A DNA stretch of 12,331 bases from a virus (IMGVR_UViG_2675903368_000015), one strand, 5' to 3'. Numbered from the stretch's first letter, positions 1 to 12,331 are shown. The notes: a model not told the origin generated them from the sequence alone. Made by a program: numbers and translations.

Positions 1-276
1 GTGGCTTCTGTTTCTATCAGCTGTCCCTCCTGTTCAGCTACTGACGGGGTGGTGCGTAACGGCAAAAGCACCGCCGGACATCAGCGCTATCTCTGCTCTC
101 ACTGCCGTAAAACATGGCAACTGCAGTTCACTTACACCGCTTCTCAACCCGGTACGCACCAGAAAATCATTGATATGGCCATGAATGGCGTTGGATGCCG
201 GGCAACCGCCCGCATTATGGGCGTTGGCCTCAACACGATTTTCCGCCATTTAAAAAACTCAGGCCGCAGTCGGTAA
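1..276 (+). CDS. insA: IS1 InsA (transposition inhibitor, DNA-binding)
   Basis: 91-aa product [39 protein letters not shown]... with Cys-rich N-terminus and HTH region, ending HLKNSGRSR; GTG start, stop at 274..276. Confidence 0.9.
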
Positions 277-698
277 CCTCGCGCATACAGCCGGGCAGTG
301 ACGTCATCGTCTGCGCGGAAATGGACGAACAGTGGGGATACGTCGGGGCTAAATCGCGCCAGCGCTGGCTGTTTTACGCGTATGACAGGCTCCGGAAGAC
401 GGTTGTTGCGCACGTATTCGGTGAACGCACTCTGGCCACACTGGAGCGTCTTCTAAGCCTGCTGTCGGCCTTTGAGGTCGTGGTATGGATGACGGATGGC
501 TGGCCGCTGTATGAATCCCGCCTGAAGGGAAAGCTGCACGTAATCAGCAAGCGTTACACTCAGCGAATTGAGCGGCATAACCTGAATCTGAGACAACATC
601 TGGCAAGGCTGGGACGGAAGTCACTGTCGTTCTCAAAATCGGTGGAGCTGCATGACAAGGTCATCGGGCATTATCTGAACATAAAACACTATCAGTAA
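195..698 (+). CDS. insB: IS1 insB reading frame; the transposase is made as the InsAB' fusion by -1 frameshifting from insA
   Basis: 167-aa ORF in the -1 frame relative to insA, overlapping its 3' end; sequence ...[28 protein letters not shown]...[15 protein letters not shown] matches IS1 InsB. Confidence 0.85.
252..258 (+). promoter_or_regulatory. IS1 programmed -1 ribosomal frameshift heptamer A-AAA-AAC
   Basis: Sequence ttaaaaaactc; in the insA frame the codons are TTA AAA AAC, so the heptamer at 252..258 sits exactly where the insB frame overlaps. This is the known IS1 recoding signal. Confidence 0.8.
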
Positions 699-798
699 GT
701 TGGAGTCATTACCCAACAGTTTTATCAGGACCTACGATATATTATATAACAACAAGCCGCCCATTACCCAATATGAGGGTATTAGCGGCAATGTAAAA

Positions 799-1293
799 TC
801 AGAACAGTCCTTTAACTGAACTGGCCACGCTGTTAAGGGATGATGTGACCTTATCTTTGAAGCCGGACAGCATATCACTGAACGATGAGGATTGCAGACG
901 CTCCCGCAAATCCTCATCACAGCGTTCAAGGGTCAGTGAAAATTCTATCTTTTTCGCCTTACCGTAGCGATCAAACTCGGAACGGGTCGTATTCGTTTCA
1001 GTCAGTACATACATGCCGTAAATCTGCCCGACACCATCAATCAGAGGCCAGGGGCGTCCTGTATATGCCTGTGTGGTCAGCAACGAAAGCGACACTTCGC
1101 CACCTGTAATTTCAGGATAAAGCACGCCGGAAAGCACGATGCGATCATCACCTGCGCCGATATACTGCCAGCTTGCTGAACGGTTAACGCGTTCATTTTT
1201 CACATGCCGCCAGCTTTTGTTTTGCTGTAACTGCTGATGCGGCAATGTGCGCAGCTCAAAAACAAACATGCCGTAGATCATCATCATGGCCAT
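799..1293 (-). CDS. U: P2 gpU-like tail protein
   Basis: 164-aa product with ...SWRHVKNERVNRSASWQYIGAGDDRIVLSGVLYPEITGG...TGRPWPLIDGVG... resembling P2 gpU as I recall it; lies directly downstream of the tape measure gene on the same strand, as U does in P2. Confidence 0.75.
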   Translation of the reverse strand: MAMMMIYGMFVFELRTLPHQQLQQNKSWRHVKNERVNRSASWQYIGAGDDRIVLSGVLYPEITGGEVSLSLLTTQAYTGRPWPLIDGVGQIYGMYVLTETNTTRSEFDRYGKAKKIEFSLTLERCDEDLRERLQSSSFSDMLSGFKDKVTSSLNSVASSVKGLF

Positions 1294-1299
1294 GACTCC

Positions 1300-4116
1300 T
1301 CAATCTTTATCGTAAAAACTGCCACGTCCGGCACGAGCACGCCGTTCCACCTCTGCCCTGACCATTTCACCGACCAGTTTCGCCAGTTCGCGGGGATTCT
1401 GCGTAACAACGTTATGCAGATGAACATGAATTTCACCGCCAAATCCGGAGACAACAGGCTCCCGGTTACGGGAAGTTGCAGGAACTGATGCCACTGGCGA
1501 TCGTATGGCCTCCGCCACCGGGCGGGAGCTGGCCGCAACAACAGGGACCAGCGCCGGAGGCAGCAGAGCCGGGACCACGGGTGTGATGTTGATTGCGGAA
1601 GCAGGCTTACTGACCTGCGCAATCTTCCGCTCCTGCCACTCCCCACGAACAGCAAGTGCGCGGGGCAGGTTCTTAAAGACAATATCGCCGGGGCCAATAC
1701 GTTTTTTTGTCTCATCAACCAGCTTACCTGTGTTATCAGCAATTTTGCTGAGTCTGCGTAGCGTGCCGGTATTGCTGTCTGTGAGCGGTTTGTTGTCTTT
1801 GGGTTTATCGCCTCCGGTGCCATTGCCATTTTCCGCAGACTTCGGCGGATTGATTTTCGCAATGTCTCCCTGAAACAGAGCAACCTTGTCCTGAAGAATG
1901 GCCGCACGCTGTGCGTCTTCGATTTTCTTTCTCGCCCTTTCCGCTTCATCCGGAAGCACACCGAGTTTTTCAAGTATCCACGCCAGCGTATCCAGCAACA
2001 TTTTTGCAGGCGTCAGAACAAGCTGTAGCGCGCCACCAAGAACGTTACCGAATATCTCGCCAGCACTGGTACATTTATCCAGCGTTTCCTTGCTGGACTC
2101 CATCGGTGACAGCAGCGATTTAAACCAGTTAAACACCTGGCTGATCCCGCTTCCGATTGCGTCAAAAACAGGACCAAACCGTTCAAAGGTTTCACGCAAC
2201 GGGGTCAGCCTTTCCATAATCCCGCCGAACACCCCGGCAAAAAATGCCCTGATGGGATCCCAGTATTTCCAGATAAGAACGGCAGCTCCGGCAAGCGCAG
2301 CCACGATAAGACCAACCGGACTGAACAGCGCCCCGATAGCGCCTCCCAGCAAAGAAACGGAACCCGTCACCATTCCCCACAGCGCAGGCAACACCCTGAC
2401 GACATTCATTGACCGGGTAAGAATGTCAAAACCAAGACGCAGGGTGGCCAGCTTCCCGTAAAGCCCCCCAATAACCAGCGACAACGAGCCAATCGTTGCA
2501 GTCATTGCCAGCAACGCACCGCCTGCTATCAGTAGCTGGCGCGTCAGTACCGGATGGGCCTGCGCCAGCGAGGTGATTTTTTCAAGCACCCGCGTGAGCC
2601 ACTGCGTGACAGAACGCAGCGGACCGTCAACCAGATCACTGATGCGAATACGAAGACCTTCCCATGCGCTATCGAGATTTTTCAGGTCCCCATCAAGATT
2701 ATCGGCCATTACTTTTGCGACGCGATCGGCCTCTCCCCTTGCCCCCTGCAATTCTCTGGTCAGTTTTTGCAGCTCTCCTGAACCAGCCGCCGCAACAAGC
2801 GTCTGCAAACCAACGAACGCCTCTTCTCCGGCGATGTCCTTGAAGAAGGAAACCTGGTCCACCTGTCCGTATTTTTGTGTCGCCTTATAGAGATCAAGCA
2901 GCACATCCTCCATCGGGCGCATTTTGCCTCTGGCGTCAGCAACTGACACTCCCAGCTCTTTCAGCGCATCAGCCGCAGCTTTTGGCGGTGATGCAAGGCG
3001 GGACAGACTTGCGCGCATGGCCGTACCAGCATCGCTTCCGCGAAGACCATTATTGGCAAGCATCCCGGCCATGGCTGCCGCTTCTTCAAGACTGATACCA
3101 AGTTTTGCGGCAACCGGACCGGTATACTTCATGGTTTCGCCCAGCGCGCGTAAATCAGTATTGGTCCGGGTGAATGCCGCTGTCAGCGTATCGCCAACCC
3201 GGTCCATTTGATCGGCTGTCAGGTTGAACTGTGTGAGGATATTGGAGCCTATATCAGCCGTCTCGCCGAGTTCGACGCCACCTGCCAGCGCCATATTAAG
3301 AACACCGGGCAATGCGGCCTGAATGGCCTGCGGAGTAAAACCAGCCATTGCCAGAAAGCTCTGCCCACTGGCGGCATCACTCGCAGTAAACTGTGTTTCA
3401 GAGCCAAGTTTTAACGCCTGCTCACGCAGCGCCTTAAACTGCGGGCTGTTTTTGTCGATTCGCGTCAGTGCCTGAACGCGGGACATCTCTTTGCCGAACC
3501 CGATCGCAGGCTGCAAAAAACGCCCGGCAGCATAGCCGCCCGCCGCTGCCGCACCAATTGCCAGTGCACCACCTGTTTTCAGTTTTCCCGCTGTTTCCTG
3601 CGCGCGCGAATACCGCTCACGCGCCCGCGTTACACGCGCAAGCGCCTGCCGTTCGCGTTCAAGCTGGTTGTTGTACTGTTCGGTGCGTCTGATGGCCTGC
3701 TGGATGGTGTTATCGCTGCCTGTCAGGGAAATGCCGTGGCGTTTCAGCTCTCCGCCAAGCTCCCGCATTTTTTGAATTTCCCGTGTGCGCGATTCATTCA
3801 GGCGTTCAAGCCGGGTGCTTAACTGCTGCATCAGCTTTTGTTGTTTTTCGCTGAGCACTGTACCCGTGCGTTGTAACTGATTAAGGGCGTTAAGCTGGCG
3901 TCGTGCTTTCACGATGCCCGCATCCGCTTTACTGACAGCGTCACGGGCGCGCTCAAATGAACGCGCCTGACGCTCGAGATTTTTGAGCGCCCCCTGCGTT
4001 CGCTGGATGGAGTCACCAAACTGCCCCATCAGGCGGCGGGCGTTTTCGGCAGGCCGGGTCAGCCTGTCAACGGCGCTGAAAGCGACCCGGATATCAAGAG
4101 TCTTCATTATCTGCAT
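1300..4116 (-). CDS. T: Tail tape measure protein (P2 gpT-like)
   Basis: 938-aa ORF with a long coiled-coil-rich N-terminal part (many Q/R/E/L heptad-like stretches), a Gly/Ala-rich hydrophobic central segment, and position between the E/E' chaperone pair and U. Confidence 0.85.
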   Translation of the reverse strand: MQIMKTLDIRVAFSAVDRLTRPAENARRLMGQFGDSIQRTQGALKNLERQARSFERARDAVSKADAGIVKARRQLNALNQLQRTGTVLSEKQQKLMQQLSTRLERLNESRTREIQKMRELGGELKRHGISLTGSDNTIQQAIRRTEQYNNQLERERQALARVTRARERYSRAQETAGKLKTGGALAIGAAAAGGYAAGRFLQPAIGFGKEMSRVQALTRIDKNSPQFKALREQALKLGSETQFTASDAASGQSFLAMAGFTPQAIQAALPGVLNMALAGGVELGETADIGSNILTQFNLTADQMDRVGDTLTAAFTRTNTDLRALGETMKYTGPVAAKLGISLEEAAAMAGMLANNGLRGSDAGTAMRASLSRLASPPKAAADALKELGVSVADARGKMRPMEDVLLDLYKATQKYGQVDQVSFFKDIAGEEAFVGLQTLVAAAGSGELQKLTRELQGARGEADRVAKVMADNLDGDLKNLDSAWEGLRIRISDLVDGPLRSVTQWLTRVLEKITSLAQAHPVLTRQLLIAGGALLAMTATIGSLSLVIGGLYGKLATLRLGFDILTRSMNVVRVLPALWGMVTGSVSLLGGAIGALFSPVGLIVAALAGAAVLIWKYWDPIRAFFAGVFGGIMERLTPLRETFERFGPVFDAIGSGISQVFNWFKSLLSPMESSKETLDKCTSAGEIFGNVLGGALQLVLTPAKMLLDTLAWILEKLGVLPDEAERARKKIEDAQRAAILQDKVALFQGDIAKINPPKSAENGNGTGGDKPKDNKPLTDSNTGTLRRLSKIADNTGKLVDETKKRIGPGDIVFKNLPRALAVRGEWQERKIAQVSKPASAINITPVVPALLPPALVPVVAASSRPVAEAIRSPVASVPATSRNREPVVSGFGGEIHVHLHNVVTQNPRELAKLVGEMVRAEVERRARAGRGSFYDKD

Positions 4117-4360
4117 TCCCGCTGCGAAGTGCCGCCCGCTCGCGCCAGCTAACCACTTCGCCGGGCGTCATCATGAAGATTTCGGCGGGCGACCAGTTAA
4201 AAATGGCGGCAATATCCGCCACCAGATCTTCGATGTGCTCAAAGCACACCAGGGTGATTACGCTGCCGTCTCCTGCACGCTCTTCGCGCCAGAGTCTGGC
4301 TCGCTCATAAAATTTACAGCCACAGCGCACAACTGAATAAAATCGCGTGACGACATTTTT
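4094..4360 (-). CDS. E' extension: -1 frame segment expected to be translated as an E+E' fusion after frameshifting near the end of E
   Basis: The -1 frame is closed by a TAA at 4361..4363 and is open from 4360 down to the stop at 4094..4096, overlapping the first 22 nt of T. The opening coincides with an A7 run on the coding strand (plus T7 at 4356..4362). Same architecture as P2 E/E+E' and lambda G/GT. Confidence 0.55.
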   Translation of the reverse strand, partial: KNVVTRFYSVVRCGCKFYERARLWREERAGDGSVITLVCFEHIEDLVADIAAIFNWSPAEIFMMTPGEVVSWRERAALRSGNADNEDS

Positions 4361-4632
4361 TTAATCATCACTTCATCCAGTCGTGGCGAGGTCACGCGAG
4401 GCAACAGCGTGAACATGGTATCCGCTTTCAGATTCAGCACATCAGACAGCGACAGACCACGCAGGGATCCAGCCTGCTCAATAGCCCCGGTGATCTCCAC
4501 ATACGTGATTTTTTCGCCACCACGCTCAATTGGTCGGGTCAGTTTTACGCCACGTTCGACAGCCATATCCTCACCTGCCGTCACATCATCCGCCACGGTG
4601 TTATTCCGGGTTTCAGTATCGATGTCTTTCAT
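4258..4632 (-). CDS. E: Tail assembly chaperone (P2 gpE-like)
   Basis: 124-aa ORF between the tube gene and the tape measure gene; strong RBS (AAGGAGA) 6 nt upstream of the ATG at 4632; a -1 frame ORF overlaps its 3' end. Confidence 0.7.
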   Translation of the reverse strand: MKDIDTETRNNTVADDVTAGEDMAVERGVKLTRPIERGGEKITYVEITGAIEQAGSLRGLSLSDVLNLKADTMFTLLPRVTSPRLDEVMIKKMSSRDFIQLCAVAVNFMSEPDSGAKSVQETAA

Positions 4633-4687
4633 CAGTTGTCTCCTTTTCAGTCAGAGGCGACGCACTGCGCCGCCTGCATATTACTTA

Positions 4688-5200
4688 TCAGCCAAGCCCA
4701 AGCGCGGAACGGATACGGTCAGGCACAATGTCCTTGCCGTCCTTCCGGTAGATGTGGTTCAACAGGTCGATTTCCCACAGCGGGCGATCGTTAACGCTCA
4801 GCTTGTAGTAGGTGTTTTTGACAGCGTAAGTGTGTGATGTGGCTTCGCCCTGTTTGGCTTCCCCCATATCAATTTCCGTCACACGTCCGCGCATCTCGAT
4901 TTCATACAGATCGCTTTCTGCATCGGTGTAGTATTCACCCGCAAAACGCAGCAGCGTGCCGTCAATCGTGCCGCCATATTTAAGGAACAGCGCACGAACA
5001 GCTCCCCCCATAACAAAACTCGCATCAAGCGCGGAGTCGTCCAGACCGAGATCAATACTTACCGCCCCCATCATGCCACCACCACGATAGCTGTCGGTTT
5101 TGCGCGTCAGTTTGGGCGGCGTGACGGATGTCACTTTACCCACTTCGTTTTCACCATCCACAAACAACGTAAAAAAGCGAAGATGTTTTGGTACAGCCAT
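4688..5200 (-). CDS. FII: Contractile tail tube protein (P2 gpFII-like)
   Basis: 170-aa product; motifs ...PKLTRK...YRGGGMMG...DLGLDD...MRGR..EID.GE.KQGE... resemble P2 FII. The start ATG overlaps the FI stop as TGATG, with a GGGAGGTG RBS inside the FI 3' end. Confidence 0.85.
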   Translation of the reverse strand: MAVPKHLRFFTLFVDGENEVGKVTSVTPPKLTRKTDSYRGGGMMGAVSIDLGLDDSALDASFVMGGAVRALFLKYGGTIDGTLLRFAGEYYTDAESDLYEIEMRGRVTEIDMGEAKQGEATSHTYAVKNTYYKLSVNDRPLWEIDLLNHIYRKDGKDIVPDRIRSALGLG

Positions 5201-6384
5201 CAGGCACCTCCCAGCACCGCAAATGCGGGACCAAAGAATTCATCAGTAAACGTCTGGTAAAGCTCCATGTCTTCCAGTGGCGGAACGGGCGTATATTTGT
5301 AGCGAATACGCACACGCCCCTGACGTAAATCCGTGGTGCCGTTATCCACCACGTCATACCAGCACTCCGCGCCAATCAGTTTCCCGGCAGTAACCAGCGA
5401 ATCCAGTTTTGCCCTGATGGCACTGATAACATCCTTCACGTTCGCAGGCGTCAGTGGACTGTCGATGGTTTCAAACTGCGCTTCCGCAATTGAATCAGCC
5501 AGCACCTGTGCGGTTCGGGTATACACCTCAAAGATGTAGGCGTTCGTTTCCGGTGTGCGGTTGCCCCAGAAGCGGAACCCGTTGCGACGAATAATGGTCG
5601 TGATTTCTTTGTTGTTGAGGCTGTTGGCATCGCTGTCTTCGGCCTGCAACGACCAGAACACATGCCTCGACATCCCCAGCACATTTTTAACCGGAACGTT
5701 GGACAGTGATTTGTGCCACCCCTGCTCATGGTCAATGTACGCACGAAGGCCGCACGCATAGGCAGGCGCGGGGAACGTTTCGTTTTTGCCACTTTTCGGG
5801 TTGTAGGCGATGAAGTCCGGCCATAAGAGCATCACCTCACGTTCGTTGAATTTCTGGCGATAGGTAATCGCCTCAGCCATCGTGTTACAGCCGTGACATG
5901 AGGCATACACAAACGCGCGCAGTTTACCTGCAATCACGCACAGGGATTTTGTTACAGCCTCCGTGTCCAGCTCCGGCGCGGCCAGAATACGCGGACGGTA
6001 TCCGATGCTTTCATCCTGCTCTGCAACAAGCAGCGCATACATCCCCGTATAGCTGCCGTCATCCTCAGAACCACCGATAACCAGTTGATCCTGCGTCTTT
6101 CCGTCTTCTTCTTTGTGTTCAGCCACGCGAACGACGATCACCTTTGTGCTCACCTGGTCTGCGATGGCCTTAAGCGCACGATAAAGCGTCCCCGTTGTTC
6201 CGCATTTTCCCAGCACGTCATTGACGCGGGTCAGCAATGTGGGCTTGTTCAGCGGGAACAGCTTCGCGTCCGCATCATCCGCCGTTGCCACGATACCGAT
6301 AACGCTGGAATCAACATCGTTAATCGCTGTTACCAGGTCGGTATTTTCCGTAACACGGGCACCATGAAAACGAGTTTCACTCAT
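5200..6384 (-). CDS. FI: Contractile tail sheath protein (P2 gpFI-like)
   Basis: 394-aa product; motifs ...FPLNKP...KLRAF...WPDF...EQGWHK.LSNV...IRR.GFRFWGNRT...YTRTAQV...YTPVPPLE... resemble P2 FI. Confidence 0.9.
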   Translation of the reverse strand: MSETRFHGARVTENTDLVTAINDVDSSVIGIVATADDADAKLFPLNKPTLLTRVNDVLGKCGTTGTLYRALKAIADQVSTKVIVVRVAEHKEEDGKTQDQLVIGGSEDDGSYTGMYALLVAEQDESIGYRPRILAAPELDTEAVTKSLCVIAGKLRAFVYASCHGCNTMAEAITYRQKFNEREVMLLWPDFIAYNPKSGKNETFPAPAYACGLRAYIDHEQGWHKSLSNVPVKNVLGMSRHVFWSLQAEDSDANSLNNKEITTIIRRNGFRFWGNRTPETNAYIFEVYTRTAQVLADSIAEAQFETIDSPLTPANVKDVISAIRAKLDSLVTAGKLIGAECWYDVVDNGTTDLRQGRVRIRYKYTPVPPLEDMELYQTFTDEFFGPAFAVLGGA

Positions 6385-6541
6385 AGCTTCAGCCCCTTGT
6401 ATCCGTTAAATGATTCAGCAACAATCATCACCCACCACGCGCGTAATCTCACCCCTGCGCTATTCTCCCGCCACGGCGACAACAAAAAGCAGTAACCCCC
6501 TCCGCACGCACATGCGACCATGCCGCACAGGGAGGGAACAG

Positions 6542-7651
6542 ATGACCGACACCACCATGCAATTGCTCAGTCAGGGCACAGACCCCGTGAAAATGCCGGA
6601 TTTTGATATTCTCGCCGAGGGTAAAACGCTGTCCGGCGTGGCAGAACGCCTGATGAGCCTGTCACTGACCGACAACCGGGGATTTGAGGCGGACCAGCTC
6701 ACCATCACGCTGGATGATGCCGATGACCAGTTGCAGCTACCGCCACGGGGCGCGCGTCTGACGGTTCTCATTGGCTGGAAAGGGGAACCGCTGACAGAAA
6801 AAGGCACTTACATTGTTGATGAAATCGCTCACGAAGGACCGCCGGACAGGCTGACTGTTTCAGCCAGAAGCGCAGATTTTCGGGATGAATTTAATGTTAA
6901 ACGTGAGGCGTCCTGGCATGATGTGACCGTTGAACGTGTGGTATCCGCCATCGCTCATCGGTACAGCCTGAAACCGCAAATCAGCGAAATGCTGATGGAT
7001 ATCGAAATCGACCACGCCGACCAGACTGAAGAAAGCGACATGTCCTTCCTTACGCGCATGGCGGAAATGCTGGGCGCAATCACCACGGTAAAAAGCGGTA
7101 ATCTGTTATTCATCATGCCCGGCGGTGGCGTGAACGCACAGGGCCAGCCGTTGCCATCGTTCGCCATCACACGCAGCAGCGGCGATCGCCATCAGTTCCG
7201 CATTGCTGACCGCGAGGCGTATACGGGGGTACGCGCTTACTGGCTTGATCTTAATTACGGGAAAAAGAAAAAAGTCAGCGTGAAACGCCGCAAACCGCCA
7301 AAACCCAAAAAGGAGAAAAGCAGCAGCCGTGAAGGTGATTATATGGAAGGCGCGGAAGGCAATGTGTTTGTGTTACGCAAGACTTATCAGAACGAGCAGG
7401 CAGCAAGACGCGCAGCGGCGGCAAAGTGGCAGCAGCTACAACGCGGAGCCGCATTATTTTCCATCACGCTGGTGCGTGGACGTGCAGAACTCTACCCCGA
7501 AATGCATGGCACGGTAACAGGATTTAAAAGCGAGATTGATAATCAGGACTGGATTATTGCGAAAGCCGAGCACACCATTGATAACAGCGGCTTTACCACA
7601 CAGCTTGAGCTTGAGGCAAAAATCCCGGAATGGATAGCAGAAACAGAGTGA
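6542..7651 (+). CDS. D: P2 gpD-like tail/baseplate protein (phage late control gene D family)
   Basis: 369 aa from the ATG at 6542, which has a GGAGGG RBS 5 nt upstream (the track ORF extends in frame to 6410 without an obvious RBS). Motifs ...LSLTDNRGFEADQLTITLDDADDQLQLP.RGA...GW.GE...DEI.H.G.PD.L...ARSADFR...ESWHD... and a Lys-rich linker before the C-terminal ...LQRG...FSI.L.RGRA.L.PE....GFK..ID.QDW.I...H...NSGFTT.LELE are typical of this family. Confidence 0.8.
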   Translation: MTDTTMQLLSQGTDPVKMPDFDILAEGKTLSGVAERLMSLSLTDNRGFEADQLTITLDDADDQLQLPPRGARLTVLIGWKGEPLTEKGTYIVDEIAHEGPPDRLTVSARSADFRDEFNVKREASWHDVTVERVVSAIAHRYSLKPQISEMLMDIEIDHADQTEESDMSFLTRMAEMLGAITTVKSGNLLFIMPGGGVNAQGQPLPSFAITRSSGDRHQFRIADREAYTGVRAYWLDLNYGKKKKVSVKRRKPPKPKKEKSSSREGDYMEGAEGNVFVLRKTYQNEQAARRAAAAKWQQLQRGAALFSITLVRGRAELYPEMHGTVTGFKSEIDNQDWIIAKAEHTIDNSGFTTQLELEAKIPEWIAETE

Positions 7652-7719
7652 GCAACTTAGACATATTAGCTCAAACTTAAACTGGCAAGTTTACAGTATA
7701 GAATTAAACATAAACGACG

Positions 7720-7748
7720 GTCCGCTCCGTGTCAGAAGCGGACTTTGT
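7720..7748. terminator. Candidate terminator hairpin between the convergent D and 340-aa genes
   Basis: 7-bp stem gtccgct/agcggac with a 10-nt loop, followed by tttgt on the plus strand; weak U tract, so modest confidence. Confidence 0.3.
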
Positions 7749-7771
7749 CATCCCTATGTAAGGTTGATTGC

Positions 7772-8794
7772 TTAATACGCATTTAATTTAAATTTGTATT
7801 TGCCTTCTATGTAATGGATAAATTCAATTATGCTTTTTTCTATCGCATCTAATATATGAATATATCCATCCCGATTTAAGGTCCTATCCAACTCAAAGTG
7901 ATGAACTATCCCATGTCTATATTGTATGATTTCAGAAATTCGATTCTCAAGAAAATCAACTGATTTTCCAATTCTTTTTTTCTTATAAAGAATCGCTCTC
8001 ACATCTATATCCAGCCACTCTTTATATGCTTTGTTTAGGTGGGTTAAGTTTTGAAAAGTGTAATTTCTTGCAATAACACTTTCTATTGAAATATTTCCTT
8101 TCTCTATCTCAAGCAGAATATCAAAATCAACTTTTTGCTTATACGATGTTCTTTTTGCTATTGCGAAAGGATCGTACTTTATAAGTATTTGAAAAGCTCT
8201 AGAGAAAAAGTATTCAAACATAGCAACCGCAAAAGGTACTAATCCATTATATATAACTCTACTGGGATCCATACATTGCATGTAATCAAAGTATTCGGAT
8301 AAACCGCCATCTTCCGGTAGGTTTAATTTAATAGAAGGTTCAGGTAAGGCATGTTTAACAGCGGAAATCTCATGATGGACATGATTAAATATTGAAGAAA
8401 TGCCACGACTGATCGGACTACTAGAATCCTTCCATAGAGGAGCGTACCTATTTTTCCCATAATCACCTATAAGTGTTCCACCAAAAAGACTCCTTGCGCC
8501 TTTTAGAACATCATTAAGCATTTTTACATCATGCCAACTAGCGCTATATAAATTACGCACATGCAATGCCCATTTATTACCAGATATGTGTAATTCGTCA
8601 TTTGAAACAGGATATATATCAGCCGAAACTCCATCTGTAGATTTGAAGTCCGTATCATCAAACCAAGAGTAATTCAACGTTCCTTGGGGCCATTCCCTCA
8701 AATGTTTACACCTTTTAAAACCTAAATTTTCAAGGTAATTTTTAAGTTCGTTTCTAGTTGCTTTTTTAGGGTACAGCGTTATATCTCTTCCCAT
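7772..8794 (-). CDS. Hypothetical protein, 340 aa, AT-rich inserted gene between D and ogr; function unknown
   Basis: Long uninterrupted ORF on the strand opposite D and ogr; AGGTG RBS about 8 nt upstream of the ATG at 8794; base composition visibly AT-rich compared with the flanking tail genes. No family recognised by eye; contains RHGIVHH near the C-terminus. Confidence 0.75.
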   Translation of the reverse strand: MGRDITLYPKKATRNELKNYLENLGFKRCKHLREWPQGTLNYSWFDDTDFKSTDGVSADIYPVSNDELHISGNKWALHVRNLYSASWHDVKMLNDVLKGARSLFGGTLIGDYGKNRYAPLWKDSSSPISRGISSIFNHVHHEISAVKHALPEPSIKLNLPEDGGLSEYFDYMQCMDPSRVIYNGLVPFAVAMFEYFFSRAFQILIKYDPFAIAKRTSYKQKVDFDILLEIEKGNISIESVIARNYTFQNLTHLNKAYKEWLDIDVRAILYKKKRIGKSVDFLENRISEIIQYRHGIVHHFELDRTLNRDGYIHILDAIEKSIIEFIHYIEGKYKFKLNAY

Positions 8795-8926
8795 GCTTTA
8801 TTCACCTGATATACAATATTTTAAATTTTAACTATTATGAACGTATGAATTTTCACATTGGATGTATGGAAGTTCAACAACTATTGAAAGTTCAATTTTC
8901 ACTCTTCGCACAGAGCGAGCTGTTAG

Positions 8927-8955
8927 TTGGAATTAGGGATCGTACAATCTAGAAT
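8927..8955 (+). promoter_or_regulatory. Candidate sigma70 promoter for ogr (TTGGAA-N17-TAGAAT)
   Basis: -35-like TTGGAA at 8927..8932, 17-nt spacer, -10-like TAGAAT at 8950..8955, about 30 nt upstream of the ogr start. Confidence 0.35.
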
Positions 8956-8985
8956 AGCGGCAACACCACGTTAAGGGAGGTCGCT

Positions 8986-9246
8986 ATGTTCCGTTGTCCG
9001 CTTTGTGGCGCATCTGCCCGTATCCGCACAAGTCGTCCGGAAAATGATTCAAACACCGTGCGGCAAAAGTATTACCAGTGTAACAATCTGGAATGCGGCG
9101 TATGCTTCTCAACACTGGAAGCTTTCCATAAATTCACATCGAAACACGCCTCCGGCGTTCACTCTTCAGAAGGTATCCCGTGGCATGAGCTACCAGCTTC
9201 ACACAGGGGAAACAATCAGATGAGTTTGCCTTTACCTCAGAATTAA
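8986..9246 (+). CDS. ogr: Ogr/Delta-family zinc-finger late transcription activator
   Basis: 86-aa product MFRCPLCGASARIRTSRPENDSNTVRQKYYQCNNLECGVCF... with the Cys-X2-Cys ... Cys-X4-Cys pattern and overall similarity to P2 Ogr (MFHCPLC...ARTSR...YHQCQN..C...F...); AAGGGAGG RBS 5 nt upstream. Confidence 0.8.
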   Translation: MFRCPLCGASARIRTSRPENDSNTVRQKYYQCNNLECGVCFSTLEAFHKFTSKHASGVHSSEGIPWHELPASHRGNNQMSLPLPQN

Positions 9247-9436
9247 CAAGCAGAATTGCCGGAGTAACAAAAAAGCGATAGATTACGCGCGGGTGCCTTT
9301 CGGCTGATGGTCGGAGGGAATACCCGAAGGCCAGATGTGGAAAGGCCCCGGAAAACACTTTTGTTTAACCGAGGCCCTAACCGTCTACCCTAAGCAAGTG
9401 AAAGGTTAGCGCCTCTCCGGAAAAGGAGCAAGTGCT

Positions 9437-9577
9437 ATGTCGCAAAAATCGCTTACAGCCATCACGTTCTGCGTGACGGTAATCCTCATCATCTGGATGT
9501 TGCACGGTTCGCTGTGCGAAATACGGATGAGTTTCTGGGGAGCGGAGTTTGCGGCGTTCTTACAGTGTAAGCAGTAA
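9437..9577 (+). CDS. Hok/Gef-family type I toxin-like small membrane protein (46 aa), not in the supplied ORF track
   Basis: Hand-translated: MSQKSLTAITFCVTVILIIWMLHGSLCEIRMSFWGAEFAAFLQCKQ. One hydrophobic helix followed by SLCEIR and AAF, as in plasmid R1 Hok (...[27 protein letters not shown]). AAGGAG RBS 8 nt upstream. Confidence 0.6.
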   Translation: MSQKSLTAITFCVTVILIIWMLHGSLCEIRMSFWGAEFAAFLQCKQ

Positions 9578-9586
9578 GGAAACCGC

Positions 9587-9608
9587 GACGGGGGAGTAAT
9601 CCCCCGTC
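9587..9608 (+). other. Perfect 9-bp stem-loop (gacggggga gtaa tcccccgtc) just 3' of the hok-like ORF
   Basis: Perfect inverted repeat with a 4-nt loop and no following U tract; could be a 3' mRNA fold-back or stability element as in hok mRNAs, or a Rho-dependent stop. Confidence 0.4.
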
Positions 9609-9658
9609 AATCGGTTGCCAGGGTAAGGTCGATAAGGCACCCTATCTCACGGCTCTAA

Positions 9659-9694
9659 ATGCAAAAATTCCATGAAACTGTGGGATTTTTGCAT
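9659..9694. repeat. Perfect 10-bp inverted repeat ATGCAAAAAT-N16-ATTTTTGCAT
   Basis: Arms at 9659..9668 and 9685..9694 are exact reverse complements; lies in the intergenic region upstream of the two-gene cassette. Confidence 0.5.
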
Positions 9695-9749
9695 CACTAC
9701 TGATACAGATCTGCCCTTCTATATGTCTCACTCTATACCAGCTAATCAA

Positions 9750-9778
9750 TTGACACTTATCAATAAAAAAAATCTGAT
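9750..9778 (+). promoter_or_regulatory. Weak candidate promoter for the downstream cassette (TTGACA-N17-TCTGAT)
   Basis: Perfect -35 hexamer TTGACA at 9750..9755, but the best -10 at 17-nt spacing (TCTGAT) is poor; AT-rich context with an A8 tract. Confidence 0.2.
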
Positions 9779-9837
9779 AAAATCAAAATGTTTTGTAACA
9801 AATATCAACTCGTATTGATCCAAAGGAGGCGGATTAC

Positions 9838-10170
9838 ATGGCATTAATCAAATGTCCTGAATGCCAGAAAGAGGTGAGCGATTCAGCATTGTATTGCCCT
9901 GCTTGCGGTAAACAAATAAAAAAACTTAAGCGTTCATTTTTTGGAAAGCTCATTAAGTGGATATTTATATTATTTAATATTTTTATGATCTATACGCTTT
10001 TAGTTGGACTGGGAGGCACTAGTGAAATAATAAATAATGCTACATCCGATGCCGAAAAAGCCGGTGCAGTTATTGGTACAGGCTTAGGTTTAATTACCAT
10101 TGGAAGTTTATGGGTTATTGGCGATATCATTATCGGAATTTTAGTATTTCTTACTAAACCAAAAGGATAA
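9838..10170 (+). CDS. Small membrane protein with N-terminal zinc-ribbon (CPEC...CPAC) and two predicted transmembrane helices
   Basis: 110-aa product; N-terminal CPECQKEVSDSALYCPACGK, then two long hydrophobic segments (LIKWIFILFNIFMIYTLLVGLG and AVIGTGLGLITIGSLWVIGDIIIGILVFL); AAAGGAGG RBS 8 nt upstream; AT-rich. Confidence 0.7.
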   Translation: MALIKCPECQKEVSDSALYCPACGKQIKKLKRSFFGKLIKWIFILFNIFMIYTLLVGLGGTSEIINNATSDAEKAGAVIGTGLGLITIGSLWVIGDIIIGILVFLTKPKG

Positions 10171-10174
10171 CAAA

Positions 10175-11068
10175 ATGAAAAATATAATTTTTTCTATAGG
10201 TGCATCATTTATATCAATTAGTGTACTGCCTGTTCACGCAGCAACTGAACATAATAACTTCAATGCAGTACTCCAGTGCCGAGCAATAGAAAATAATAAA
10301 GACAGACTTTCTTGTTACGATAAGTCAATACAACCGACTCGAACGAAAGTTGCTGAAAAATTCGAAAGCAGAGATCAATGCCCTGATGAGAAAGATGATG
10401 ACAGACGTTTATCTTGTTATGATCGTTTTTTTTCTCCAACATTTACTCCATCTGTAAACTCAAAATCTAAAACGGAAAAGCCAGTAACAACAGAGGCTCA
10501 GCAACCAAATCTTTCTGAGATATCTAAATGCCGAGCAGAAAATGATAAAGAAGCCAGACTAAACTGCTACGATAAACTATTCCCACAGGATAAAGCTGTT
10601 CAAGCTGAATCAAAATTAGAGAAAGCCACAGATGTAGGAAAATGGCACACATCCATTACTACATCGCCAATTGATGATTCGAAAAATGTAATTTTATCGT
10701 TAGAAAGTGATGATTATATCAGAACTCCATTTGGAGAAGCGGTTACTCCCACTCTGTTTATAGCTTGCCGAGAAAAGAAAACCGAAGTATTTCTTAGTTG
10801 GGATGTATATTTAGGCCTTGAACAAACCAGCATGCTTTATCGTCTTGATAAACAGAAAGCAGTTGAGCGAAACTGGCTAGTATCTACAGATACAAAGGCT
10901 GTTTTTTATAAAGGTAATGACATTGATTTCATCCGAAAACTAGCCAACTCAAACAAAATGTATACAAAAATAACTCCTTATAATGAGAGCCCTGTAAGTG
11001 CAACTTTCAATTTAAACGGCCTGTCAAACGCGCTAAAACCACTTCAAGCTGCTTGTAACTGGAAATAG
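10175..11068 (+). CDS. Secreted protein with three tandem Cys-pair repeats and a C-terminal domain of unknown function
   Basis: 297-aa product; start is 4 nt after the upstream stop, with an AAAAGGA RBS (operon-like); N-terminal signal peptide MKNIIFSIGASFISISVLPVHA with AXA-type cleavage site and no lipobox; three repeats of C-x9-RL-x-CYD (CRAIENNKDRLSCYD, CPDEKDDDRRLSCYD, CRAENDKEARLNCYD); C-terminal Cys pair (IACREK ... AACNWK). Confidence 0.75.
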   Translation: MKNIIFSIGASFISISVLPVHAATEHNNFNAVLQCRAIENNKDRLSCYDKSIQPTRTKVAEKFESRDQCPDEKDDDRRLSCYDRFFSPTFTPSVNSKSKTEKPVTTEAQQPNLSEISKCRAENDKEARLNCYDKLFPQDKAVQAESKLEKATDVGKWHTSITTSPIDDSKNVILSLESDDYIRTPFGEAVTPTLFIACREKKTEVFLSWDVYLGLEQTSMLYRLDKQKAVERNWLVSTDTKAVFYKGNDIDFIRKLANSNKMYTKITPYNESPVSATFNLNGLSNALKPLQAACNWK

Positions 11069-11095
11069 CATAAATCATGTGGCTTAGCCACAATC

Positions 11096-11139
11096 ACAGA
11101 TAACACAAAGCCCGTGAAAACGGGCTTTGTGTTATCTGT
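11096..11139. repeat. Perfect 19-bp inverted repeat (acagataacacaaagcccg / cgggctttgtgttatctgt) with a 6-nt loop; possible bidirectional terminator or protein-binding site
   Basis: Arms at 11096..11114 and 11121..11139 are exact reverse complements; no U tract on either side. Immediately preceded by a second small palindrome GTGGCTtAGCCAC (11079..11091). Confidence 0.5.
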
Positions 11140-11279
11140 AACTCGAAAATGTGGTCACTACGTGGACACGTGCTGATATAAATCCTTTTATATCAATAAA
11201 TTAAATCATCATTTTTTTCATCAACAAGGATTTTCACGTTTGTGTTACCTGTATGAGACGAGAGTTAACCAGACAAGTG

Positions 11280-11288
11280 TGCCATAAT
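11280..11288 (+). promoter_or_regulatory. Candidate extended -10 element (TGcCATAAT) for flk
   Basis: TG at 11280..11281 and CATAAT at 11283..11288, about 47 nt upstream of the flk ATG; no convincing -35. Confidence 0.3.
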
Positions 11289-11335
11289 CTCGCGGCCAGG
11301 CATACTTGCGAAGATTTCAGGTATAAGGATACGTA

Positions 11336-12331
11336 ATGATACAACCTATTTCCGGTCCTCCTCCTGGGCAACCACCAGGTCAGGGAGATAACCTGCCGTC
11401 TGGCGCAGGCAATCAGCCTTTATCCAGTCAGCAACGTACTTCGCTGGAAAGCTTAATGACGAAAGTGACCTCACTGACGCAACAACAAAGAGCAGAACTG
11501 TGGGCGGGTATCAGGCACGATATTGGTCTGTCGGGAGATTCACCGCTGCTTTCGCATCACTTCCCTGCCGCTGAGCATAATCTGGCGCAACGTCTGTTGG
11601 CCGCGCAAAAAAGCCATTCTGCCCGCCAGCTTTTAGCGCAATTAGGGGAGTATTTACGTCTGGGGAATAATCGTCAGGCGGTCACGGATTATATCCGTCA
11701 TAACTTTGGTCAGACGCCGCTGAATCAGCTCTCACCGGAGCAATTAAAAACCATTCTCACCCTGTTGCAGGAAGGGAAGATGGTTATTCCGCAACCACAG
11801 CAGCGCGAGGCGACCGACCGTCCTTTATTACCGGCGGAGCACAATGCGCTCAAACAGCTGGTGACCAAACTTGCGGCAGCAACGGGGGAACCCAGCAAAC
11901 AGATCTGGCAATCGATGCTGGAACTTTCCGGGGTGAAAGATGGCGAGTTAATTCCAGCGAAACTGTTTAACCATCTGGTGACCTGGCTACAGGCGCGTCA
12001 GACGCTAAGCCAGCAAAATACGCCGACACTGGAATCACTACAGATGGCGCTAAAACAACCTTTAGATGCCAGTGAACTGGCGGCGTTATCGGCATATATC
12101 CAGCAAAAATATGGCCTTTCTGCGCAATCATCGCTTTCTTCTGCCCAGGCCGAGGATATTCTTAACCAGCTTTATCAACGGCGGGTTAAAGGGATTGAGC
12201 CGCGTGATATGCAACCGCTGCTTAATCCTTTTCCACCGATGATGGACACGTTGCAAAATATGGCAACGCGTCCCGCGCTGTGGATACTGTTAGTCGCGAT
12301 TATCCTGATTCTGGTCTGGCTGGTTCGTTAA
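11336..12331 (+). CDS. flk: Flagellar regulator Flk (C-terminally membrane-anchored)
   Basis: 331-aa product beginning MIQPISGPPPGQPPGQGDN..., Gln-rich, ending in a hydrophobic anchor RPALWILLVAIILILVWLVR; matches my recollection of E. coli Flk; AAGGA RBS 7 nt upstream. Confidence 0.7.
   Translation: MIQPISGPPPGQPPGQGDNLPSGAGNQPLSSQQRTSLESLMTKVTSLTQQQRAELWAGIRHDIGLSGDSPLLSHHFPAAEHNLAQRLLAAQKSHSARQLLAQLGEYLRLGNNRQAVTDYIRHNFGQTPLNQLSPEQLKTILTLLQEGKMVIPQPQQREATDRPLLPAEHNALKQLVTKLAAATGEPSKQIWQSMLELSGVKDGELIPAKLFNHLVTWLQARQTLSQQNTPTLESLQMALKQPLDASELAALSAYIQQKYGLSAQSSLSSAQAEDILNQLYQRRVKGIEPRDMQPLLNPFPPMMDTLQNMATRPALWILLVAIILILVWLVR

Follow-up and report, generated by a model that had tools for sequence, protein, structure and literature searches.

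An IS1-marked rearrangement probably orphaned the right end of a P2-like prophage beside flk in a strain of Escherichia coli

The window, by which we mean the whole stretch of 12,331 nucleotides that was analysed, is 100% identical to contig CYCR01000002.1 of the E. coli assembly GCA_001284745.1. The window opens inside an IS1 element, whose first 55 bp are supplied by the contig, and runs through a block of P2-type tail genes into chromosomal DNA ending in flk. The features are the following, with positions counted from the first letter of the window.

Directly left of the window: first 55 bp of IS1, read from contig CYCR01000002.1
1..713, plus strand: IS1, element positions 56-768 (sequence identity, ORFs, Pfam, terminal repeats)
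1..276, plus strand: insA ORF, its GTG start being IS1 element position 56
195..698, plus strand: insB' frame, ORF intact
250-258, plus strand: A6C -1 frameshift motif TTAAAAAAC, intact
691..713, plus strand: right terminal inverted repeat of IS1, ending ...AAGTTGGAGTCATTACC
713..714, no strand: breakpoint between the IS1 right end and prophage DNA (alignment to uninterrupted relatives)
714..798: leftover 85 bp of a 96-bp AT-rich spacer between the convergent GT9 and U genes, 37.6% GC
799..1287 (or to 1293), minus strand: gpU tail protein, 162 aa, intact (Pfam PF06995 Phage_P2_GpU, E=5.5e-39)
1300..4107, minus strand: gpT tape measure, 935 aa, intact; the exact sequence occurs on only 9 contigs
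4094..4249, minus strand: GpE-family E' segment (Pfam, annotation of relatives)
4258..4632, minus strand: tail assembly chaperone E (Pfam, annotation of relatives)
4688..5200, minus strand: tail tube FII (Pfam)
5200..6384, minus strand: tail sheath FI (Pfam)
6385..6541: divergent FI/D intergenic region, 157 bp, native to the lineage
6542..7651, plus strand: gpD, 369 aa; the ORF is open upstream to 6410
7772..8794, minus strand: low-GC (33.5%) cargo gene, 340 aa, with a weak RiboL-PSP-HEPN match (E=2.5e-4, below the Pfam cut-off)
8986..9246, plus strand: ogr/Delta-like late-gene activator (annotation of relatives)
9437..9577, plus strand: hok/gef-family toxin gene at the extreme right end of the prophage (annotation of relatives)
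9838..10170, plus strand: zinc-ribbon gene, non-phage
10175..11068, plus strand: TagO/VasI-like gene, non-phage
11336..12331, plus strand: flk, non-phage

In the contig the IS1 element measures 768 bp from end to end. It possesses imperfect terminal repeats of about 23 bp (GGTGATGCTGCCAACTTACTGAT and GGTAATGACTCCAACTTACTGAT, matching at 19 of 23 positions), overlapping insA and insB' frames, the A6C site, and a 232-amino acid InsAB' fusion product (contig gene call) in which Pfam recognizes the InsA zinc ribbon, HTH_Tnp_IS1 and DDE_Tnp_IS1 domains. The element is complete and, to judge by its sequence, apparently functional. Its nucleotide identity to the IS1A copy of E. coli H1 is 96.5%.

IS1 ends at 713 and the stop codon of gpU occupies 799-801, leaving a gap of 85 bp (714..798), as an earlier note on this DNA had measured it. 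In relatives without the interruption, homology to the window begins exactly at 714. The site there reads TAA-AGTAGAAACCT/CAACAGTTTT or, with a longer right side, TAA-AGTAGAAACCT/CAACAGTTTTATC, where TAA is the GT9 stop codon and the slash the breakpoint. Measured on these relatives the IS1 end thus sits 11 bp beyond the GT9 stop codon, in the spacer, and at this position the coding sequence of neither GT9 nor U is damaged. The nine bases on each side of IS1 (left ...AGAAAACAC, right CAACAGTTT...) are unrelated to each other, each flank being single-copy at its own uninterrupted site, and there is no 8-9-bp target-site duplication at the element. The earlier note had pointed to the left end of IS1 and its duplication as the things to look for; the former is present in the contig and the latter is missing. 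The lack of a duplication indicates that IS1 marks a rearrangement which occurred during or after transposition, rather than a simple insertion, and does not affect the identity of the element as IS1.

The joint between U and IS1 is not peculiar to one assembly, since it is also present in the separate Logan assembly of ERR137824 (the presumed read set of the GCA_001284745.1 strain), which is 100% identical over 684..12331 and stops 30 nt into the IS1 end. The exact IS1/U junction was absent from 5,426 complete E. coli genomes, and had no match in the species-representative genome collection, in which the source strain is evidently not included. Among the complete genomes IS1 lies near U only in the group of ETEC strain E1739, at another spot and at another integration site. 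A scan for promoters and terminators around the junction revealed nothing over background that is relevant to the breakpoint.

The gene products U, T, E/E', FII, FI and D, together with ogr, place the segment in the P2 family (Pfam, and PGAP names in relatives). The annotation of gene D is inconsistent: the ORF starting at 6410 specifies 413 aa, gene callers start it at 6542 (369 aa), and in some genomes the PGAP annotation of D is limited to a "VgrG/Pvc8 family" protein of 266 aa, accompanied by a spurious pseudogene. The FI..U operon and D are divergent here (window 5200-7651; P88 24399-26841), while in P2 they form one operon. No canonical P2 late-promoter dyad of the Ogr type (TGT-N12-ACA) was found in the FI/D region, and how each of D and FI is driven from late promoters is not obvious; the sole match to the dyad in the window falls inside IS1 and is expected by chance.

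The position between D and ogr, here filled by the HEPN-like cargo gene, is empty in some relatives and in others occupied by unrelated genes of 478, 221 or 195 aa; it has the look of an accessory site of variable content, possibly one for defence genes. Neither the HEPN-like gene nor GT9, the zinc-ribbon protein or the TagO-like protein had a match in PADLOC. The spot just downstream of U (714-798; L002, L010, L011, L008, L022) is a cargo-exchange site as well. In the window lineage it carries GT9, a low-GC (33%) gene for a family-9 glycosyltransferase; in P88, 500465-2 and L008, a DNA invertase with alternative fibre cassettes; and in the E1739 group, a fragment of a WcaB-like acetyltransferase. 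Homology between lineages stops 7 bp past the U stop codon, at window position 792.

At the other end, homology to a phage copy integrated at a different site stops at about 9650. Between the prophage end and flk stands the pair formed by the zinc-ribbon gene and the TagO/VasI-like ("type VI secretion-associated") gene, neither of which is present in K-12, where the pdxB-flk gap is only 98 bp. No further T6SS genes were found near the TagO/VasI-like gene in the window. In other E. coli the locus is a P2-family prophage that sits between pdxB and flk. Coverage of 80% or more of the window was seen in at least 215 of the 5,426 complete E. coli genomes.

The opposite orientation of the U-to-FI genes had been regarded in the earlier note as an inverted tail block and as part of the IS1 process. 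This proved incorrect, the order being native to intact, IS1-free prophages and to phage P88. Intact copies read ...R S V W J I H G, GT9, then U-T-E'-E-FII-FI on the opposite strand, followed by D, ogr and hok. Strain A8 contains an intact prophage of this order which is the sole match to the query in its genome, so that no IS1 was detected there, and the same opposite-strand order was seen in several draft genomes. It also occurs, at 91-97% identity, in P88 and P884B11 (both Xuanwuvirus, P88 in the family Peduoviridae), 500465-2 (Gemsvirus), Citrobacter phage phiSM and others; in all, 11 phage records cover at least 80% of 714-9300 with identities of 91-97%. Since the U..FI block lies opposite to D and ogr in copies devoid of IS1, its orientation is a trait of the lineage and unrelated to the element. 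The canonical one-strand P2 order was found in a separate prophage of strain H1. This prophage (L026 14664-16693) carries a retron St85 effector and reverse transcriptase between its replication genes and its portal gene.

In every assembly which encodes an identical tape-measure protein, GT9 adjoins U and IS1 is missing. Over the shared stretch the divergence of these assemblies ranges from 0 in 7-8 kb up to 19 in 11.6 kb, and 4 substitutions in 11,618 bp separate the window from one intact relative (L015). That such near-identical relatives possess the whole prophage and no IS1 makes the IS1 event recent and specific to the strain. The retained genes are equal in length to those of the intact relatives; their intactness is a consequence of this recency and not evidence of selection.

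The statement that nothing phage-like lies beyond IS1 in the window was trivially true, the window beginning inside the element. The contig extends further, and what it holds left of IS1 is not GT9 but an AT-rich region about 820 bp upstream of cydA, the uninterrupted form of which reads GTTAGAAAACAC/TGGACACTC. Past this point the order is cydA, cydB, ybgT, ybgE, ybgC, tolQRAB and pal, on the strand opposite to flk. The prophage does, as had been proposed, end at IS1 on its U side. In K-12 cydA (at 771,458) and flk (at 2,437,950) are both on the plus strand, approximately 1.67 Mb apart, and in H1 the two genes are likewise co-oriented. We therefore have a duplication-free IS joining distant loci which are co-oriented in the references and inverted here, the pattern that marks an inversion. 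The dif site was located by exact match at 1,590,750 in K-12 and at 15,748 in H1. The distances of the two breakpoints to dif, as computed on these two maps and not on that of the source strain itself, are 820 and 847 kb (K-12) and 961 and 861 kb (H1). Both IS1 joints are in AT-rich DNA, for which IS1 has a target preference.

The most economical reading is an inversion of about 1.7 Mb, roughly symmetric about dif. An inversion centred on dif keeps the replichores in balance and is of a type that is usually tolerated. We infer this event from the joint in hand, the reciprocal junction not being among the sequences retrieved. On the whole we think it likely that an IS1-marked rearrangement, comprising the inversion of about 1.7 Mb and a probable loss of the left 25 kb or so, orphaned the right end of the P2-like prophage. 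The prophage, of the Xuanwuvirus/Gemsvirus type, was integrated between pdxB and flk; some 1.7 Mb of the chromosome would have been inverted, either through two inversely oriented copies of IS1 or by one-step intramolecular transposition of IS1; and the left ~25 kb (int through GT9) would additionally have been lost through IS1-adjacent deletion. What remained beside flk would be the orphaned right end, U-T-E'-E-FII-FI, D, the cargo gene, ogr and hok. IS1-IS1 recombination and one-step replicative transposition are inseparable here because both leave identical flanks. The reciprocal joints expected would read ...AAGTAGAAACCTCAACAGTTT/GGTGATGCTGCC (GT9 side to IS1 left end) and GGAGTCATTACC/AGAAAACACTGGACACTC (IS1 right end to sucD side). 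The junction of the cydA-upstream region with IS1 was not present in any of the 5,426 complete E. coli genomes, nor was a single-site intermediate, with IS1 at just one of the two sites, found among the complete genomes or the relatives recovered. Large inversions in E. coli come mainly from recombination between IS copies, those that are nearly symmetric being tolerated (PMC4173774).

IS1 has truncated related prophages elsewhere. In H1 (L001 8487-10121) the order is pdxB-int'-IS1-H'-G-GT9-U..., with IS1A flanked by a truncated integrase gene on one side and by the 3' end of the fibre gene H on the other; about 25 kb were removed here in a plain IS1-associated deletion that spared G, GT9, U..FI, D, ogr and hok. 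In ETEC E1739 and seven sister genomes (L022 8442-17012) the order is int...IS1-acetyltransferase fragment-U...hok at the tRNA-Leu/pgsA site, where IS1 lies about 400 bp past U and exactly U through hok is retained. A different kind of remnant, carried by many E. coli genomes (among them L031, L032, L035, L036), arose by an internal deletion that fuses the capsid gene to tail gene I (324 aa, with both Pfam domains); the head-completion, lysis and baseplate genes are gone, and H, G, GT9 and U..FI are kept. The hok/gef gene is retained in every remnant examined and could bias which deletions are survivable. H1 carries a second P2-like prophage, a potential donor of baseplate in trans. It is conceivable, if improbable, that the retention of U to hok in three IS1 truncations is non-random, either through anchoring by hok or because another P2-like prophage supplies its baseplate genes in trans. 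In the first case hok/gef would make deletions reaching hok lethal and would anchor the sheath-tube-D-ogr genes in the chromosome.

No complete phage genome is contiguous with the segment in the window, from which the integrase, replication, head, lysis, baseplate and fibre genes are absent. In intact relatives V, W, J and I (baseplate/spike), H and G (fibres), R, S, X, holin and endolysin are all located left of U, and in the nearest relatives the capsid, terminase and portal genes are contiguous with the tail genes. To call what is left a near-complete tail module, as the earlier note did, was an overstatement, since V/W/J/I, H/G, R/S and X are all on the missing side. Arguing from P2 biology, the remnant, with no attL/int partner in the correct orientation, should be unable to excise, replicate or package. 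The core of the earlier proposal, a dead remnant left by an IS1-associated rearrangement, holds, and the element is presumably non-inducible.

As regards the junction, the earlier wording, IS1-associated deletion or rearrangement, stands in its second half only: a rearrangement agrees with the missing duplication and with a partner locus some 1.7 Mb off, and a simple deletion does not agree with the inverted flank. A pure IS1-adjacent deletion without inversion, from an original IS1 site to the GT9/U spacer, as that note suggested, would invoke a mechanism which clearly acted in H1 (int'-IS1-H') and in the E1739 group, adjacent deletions by IS1 being a classical phenomenon. A deletion, however, leaves the orientation of the flanks unchanged, whereas the DNA past IS1 is cydA...pal, inverted, and approximately 1.67 Mb would have to go, terminus included, an interval that contains many essential genes. 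Flank orientation contradicts this reading, barring a mis-joined contig, and it was dropped as having next to no probability. A mis-join would imply that a simple IS1 insertion with its duplication lies between GT9 and U, that a second IS1 lies upstream of cydA, and that the flanks of the two were wrongly connected during assembly. The identity of the far flank depends on a single draft contig from an IS1-rich lineage, and the Logan assembly breaks at the IS1 end as repeats predict. The contig, on the other hand, contains no Ns; a random mis-join that mimicked a dif-centred inversion in the right orientation has, by rough estimate, a chance of ~1-2%; and look-ups of G, H and I, encoded nearby, did not bring up GCA_001284745.1. 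We regard such an artefact as quite unlikely.

Protein look-ups suggest that the left ~25 kb (int through GT9) has probably gone from assembly GCA_001284745.1. The accession lists for the exact T, HEPN-like and Flk proteins include this assembly (CTU57586, CTU57673, CTU57757); those for the exact I and H of the closest intact relative, which are short enough to be complete, contain no CTU57xxx accession; and in the alphabetical lists of W, V, S and endolysin CTU36xxx is followed directly by CTV, with no entry from this assembly. Searches with I, G and H, covering the displayed places and longest contigs, returned relatives and never this assembly, which was also not among the 24 longest-contig blocks shown of the 1,944 carrying GT9. 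Such look-ups leave "similar places" unshown, and draft assemblies often break at the fibre gene; what they say on the missing phage genes, for which the earlier note had advocated a search of the rest of the genome, is suggestive rather than decisive. Were inversion the only event, the left part (int...GT9) would be intact at the other end of the inverted segment, on the sucD side, and the prophage merely split. One inversion predicts exactly such a split, the right half is as few as 4 SNPs from intact relatives, which leaves little time for a second event, and the assembly may be among the places not displayed; but the I and H lists without accessions from this assembly, set against the T, HEPN-like and Flk lists which have them, and the W, V, S and endolysin lists to the same effect, make a surviving left half a minority prospect. 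The earlier comparison with domesticated tailocin-like elements, in which a head-less tail module is kept under selection and makes tail-like particles, has in its favour that sheath, tube, tape measure, U, D and the activator ogr are all intact and that three independent IS1 truncations retain the same U-to-hok segment. Yet the segment is devoid of baseplate, spike, fibre, tail-completion and lysis genes; only one strain shows the event, and its closest relatives (as few as 4 SNPs away) hold complete prophages; no fixed, conserved head-less form was found; and intactness is expected from recency alone. Gene content and lack of conservation led us to drop the tailocin reading, to which we attach very little probability.

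The rearrangement preferred here, inversion with probable loss of the left end, is a case of prophage decay driven by an IS, ordinary in kind and limited to one E. coli strain, and events of this kind are already known. The particular joint, between the cydA-upstream region and the GT9-U spacer, was not found among 5,426 complete genomes. For correct annotation, the pdxB/flk prophage of the source strain should be recorded as a dead remnant of the right end, and a large inversion centred on the terminus is probably present in the strain. A tail operon on the opposite strand is normal for Xuanwuvirus-type P2-like phages and no sign of rearrangement or domestication. The locus is one more case of IS1 eroding prophages in IS1-rich E. 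coli, and has little importance outside correct annotation.

Among known phages, P88 and 500465-2 are collinear with the window from 792 to about 9650 at 93-97% identity, the strands of U-T-E'-E-FII-FI relative to D/ogr/hok being alike. These are complete phages, P88 being mitomycin-C-inducible and plaque-forming (PMC5285337), while the window has IS1 in place of everything left of U. P88 further differs in having a DNA invertase and alternative fibre cassettes at the position of GT9, and no HEPN-like gene between D and ogr. Canonical P2 possesses the same families and the same FI..U order, but there H G...FI FII E E' T U D ogr are on one strand, whereas throughout the lineage of the window the FI..U block runs opposite to H/G and D/ogr. 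R-type pyocins and other tailocins likewise consist of a contractile sheath, tube and tape measure of P2 ancestry with no head genes nearby; their loci, however, have a full baseplate, fibres, chaperones, a lysis cassette, their own regulators and conservation across strains, a description which the window does not fit. The remnants of H1 and the E1739 group resemble the window in that IS1 bounds a segment keeping U through hok, but they arose by plain deletion where the prophage had originally integrated, and in them IS1 still adjoins the integrase gene, whereas the IS1 of the window is a different variant in the opposite orientation, joined to a distant, inverted locus. From the IS-mediated inversions of E. 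coli, such as the IS1 and IS150 events of the long-term evolution experiment (PMC4173774), the present case shows no difference in kind: the duplication-free IS joint, the inverted flank, the symmetry about the terminus, the AT-rich targets and the probable adjacent loss are shared.
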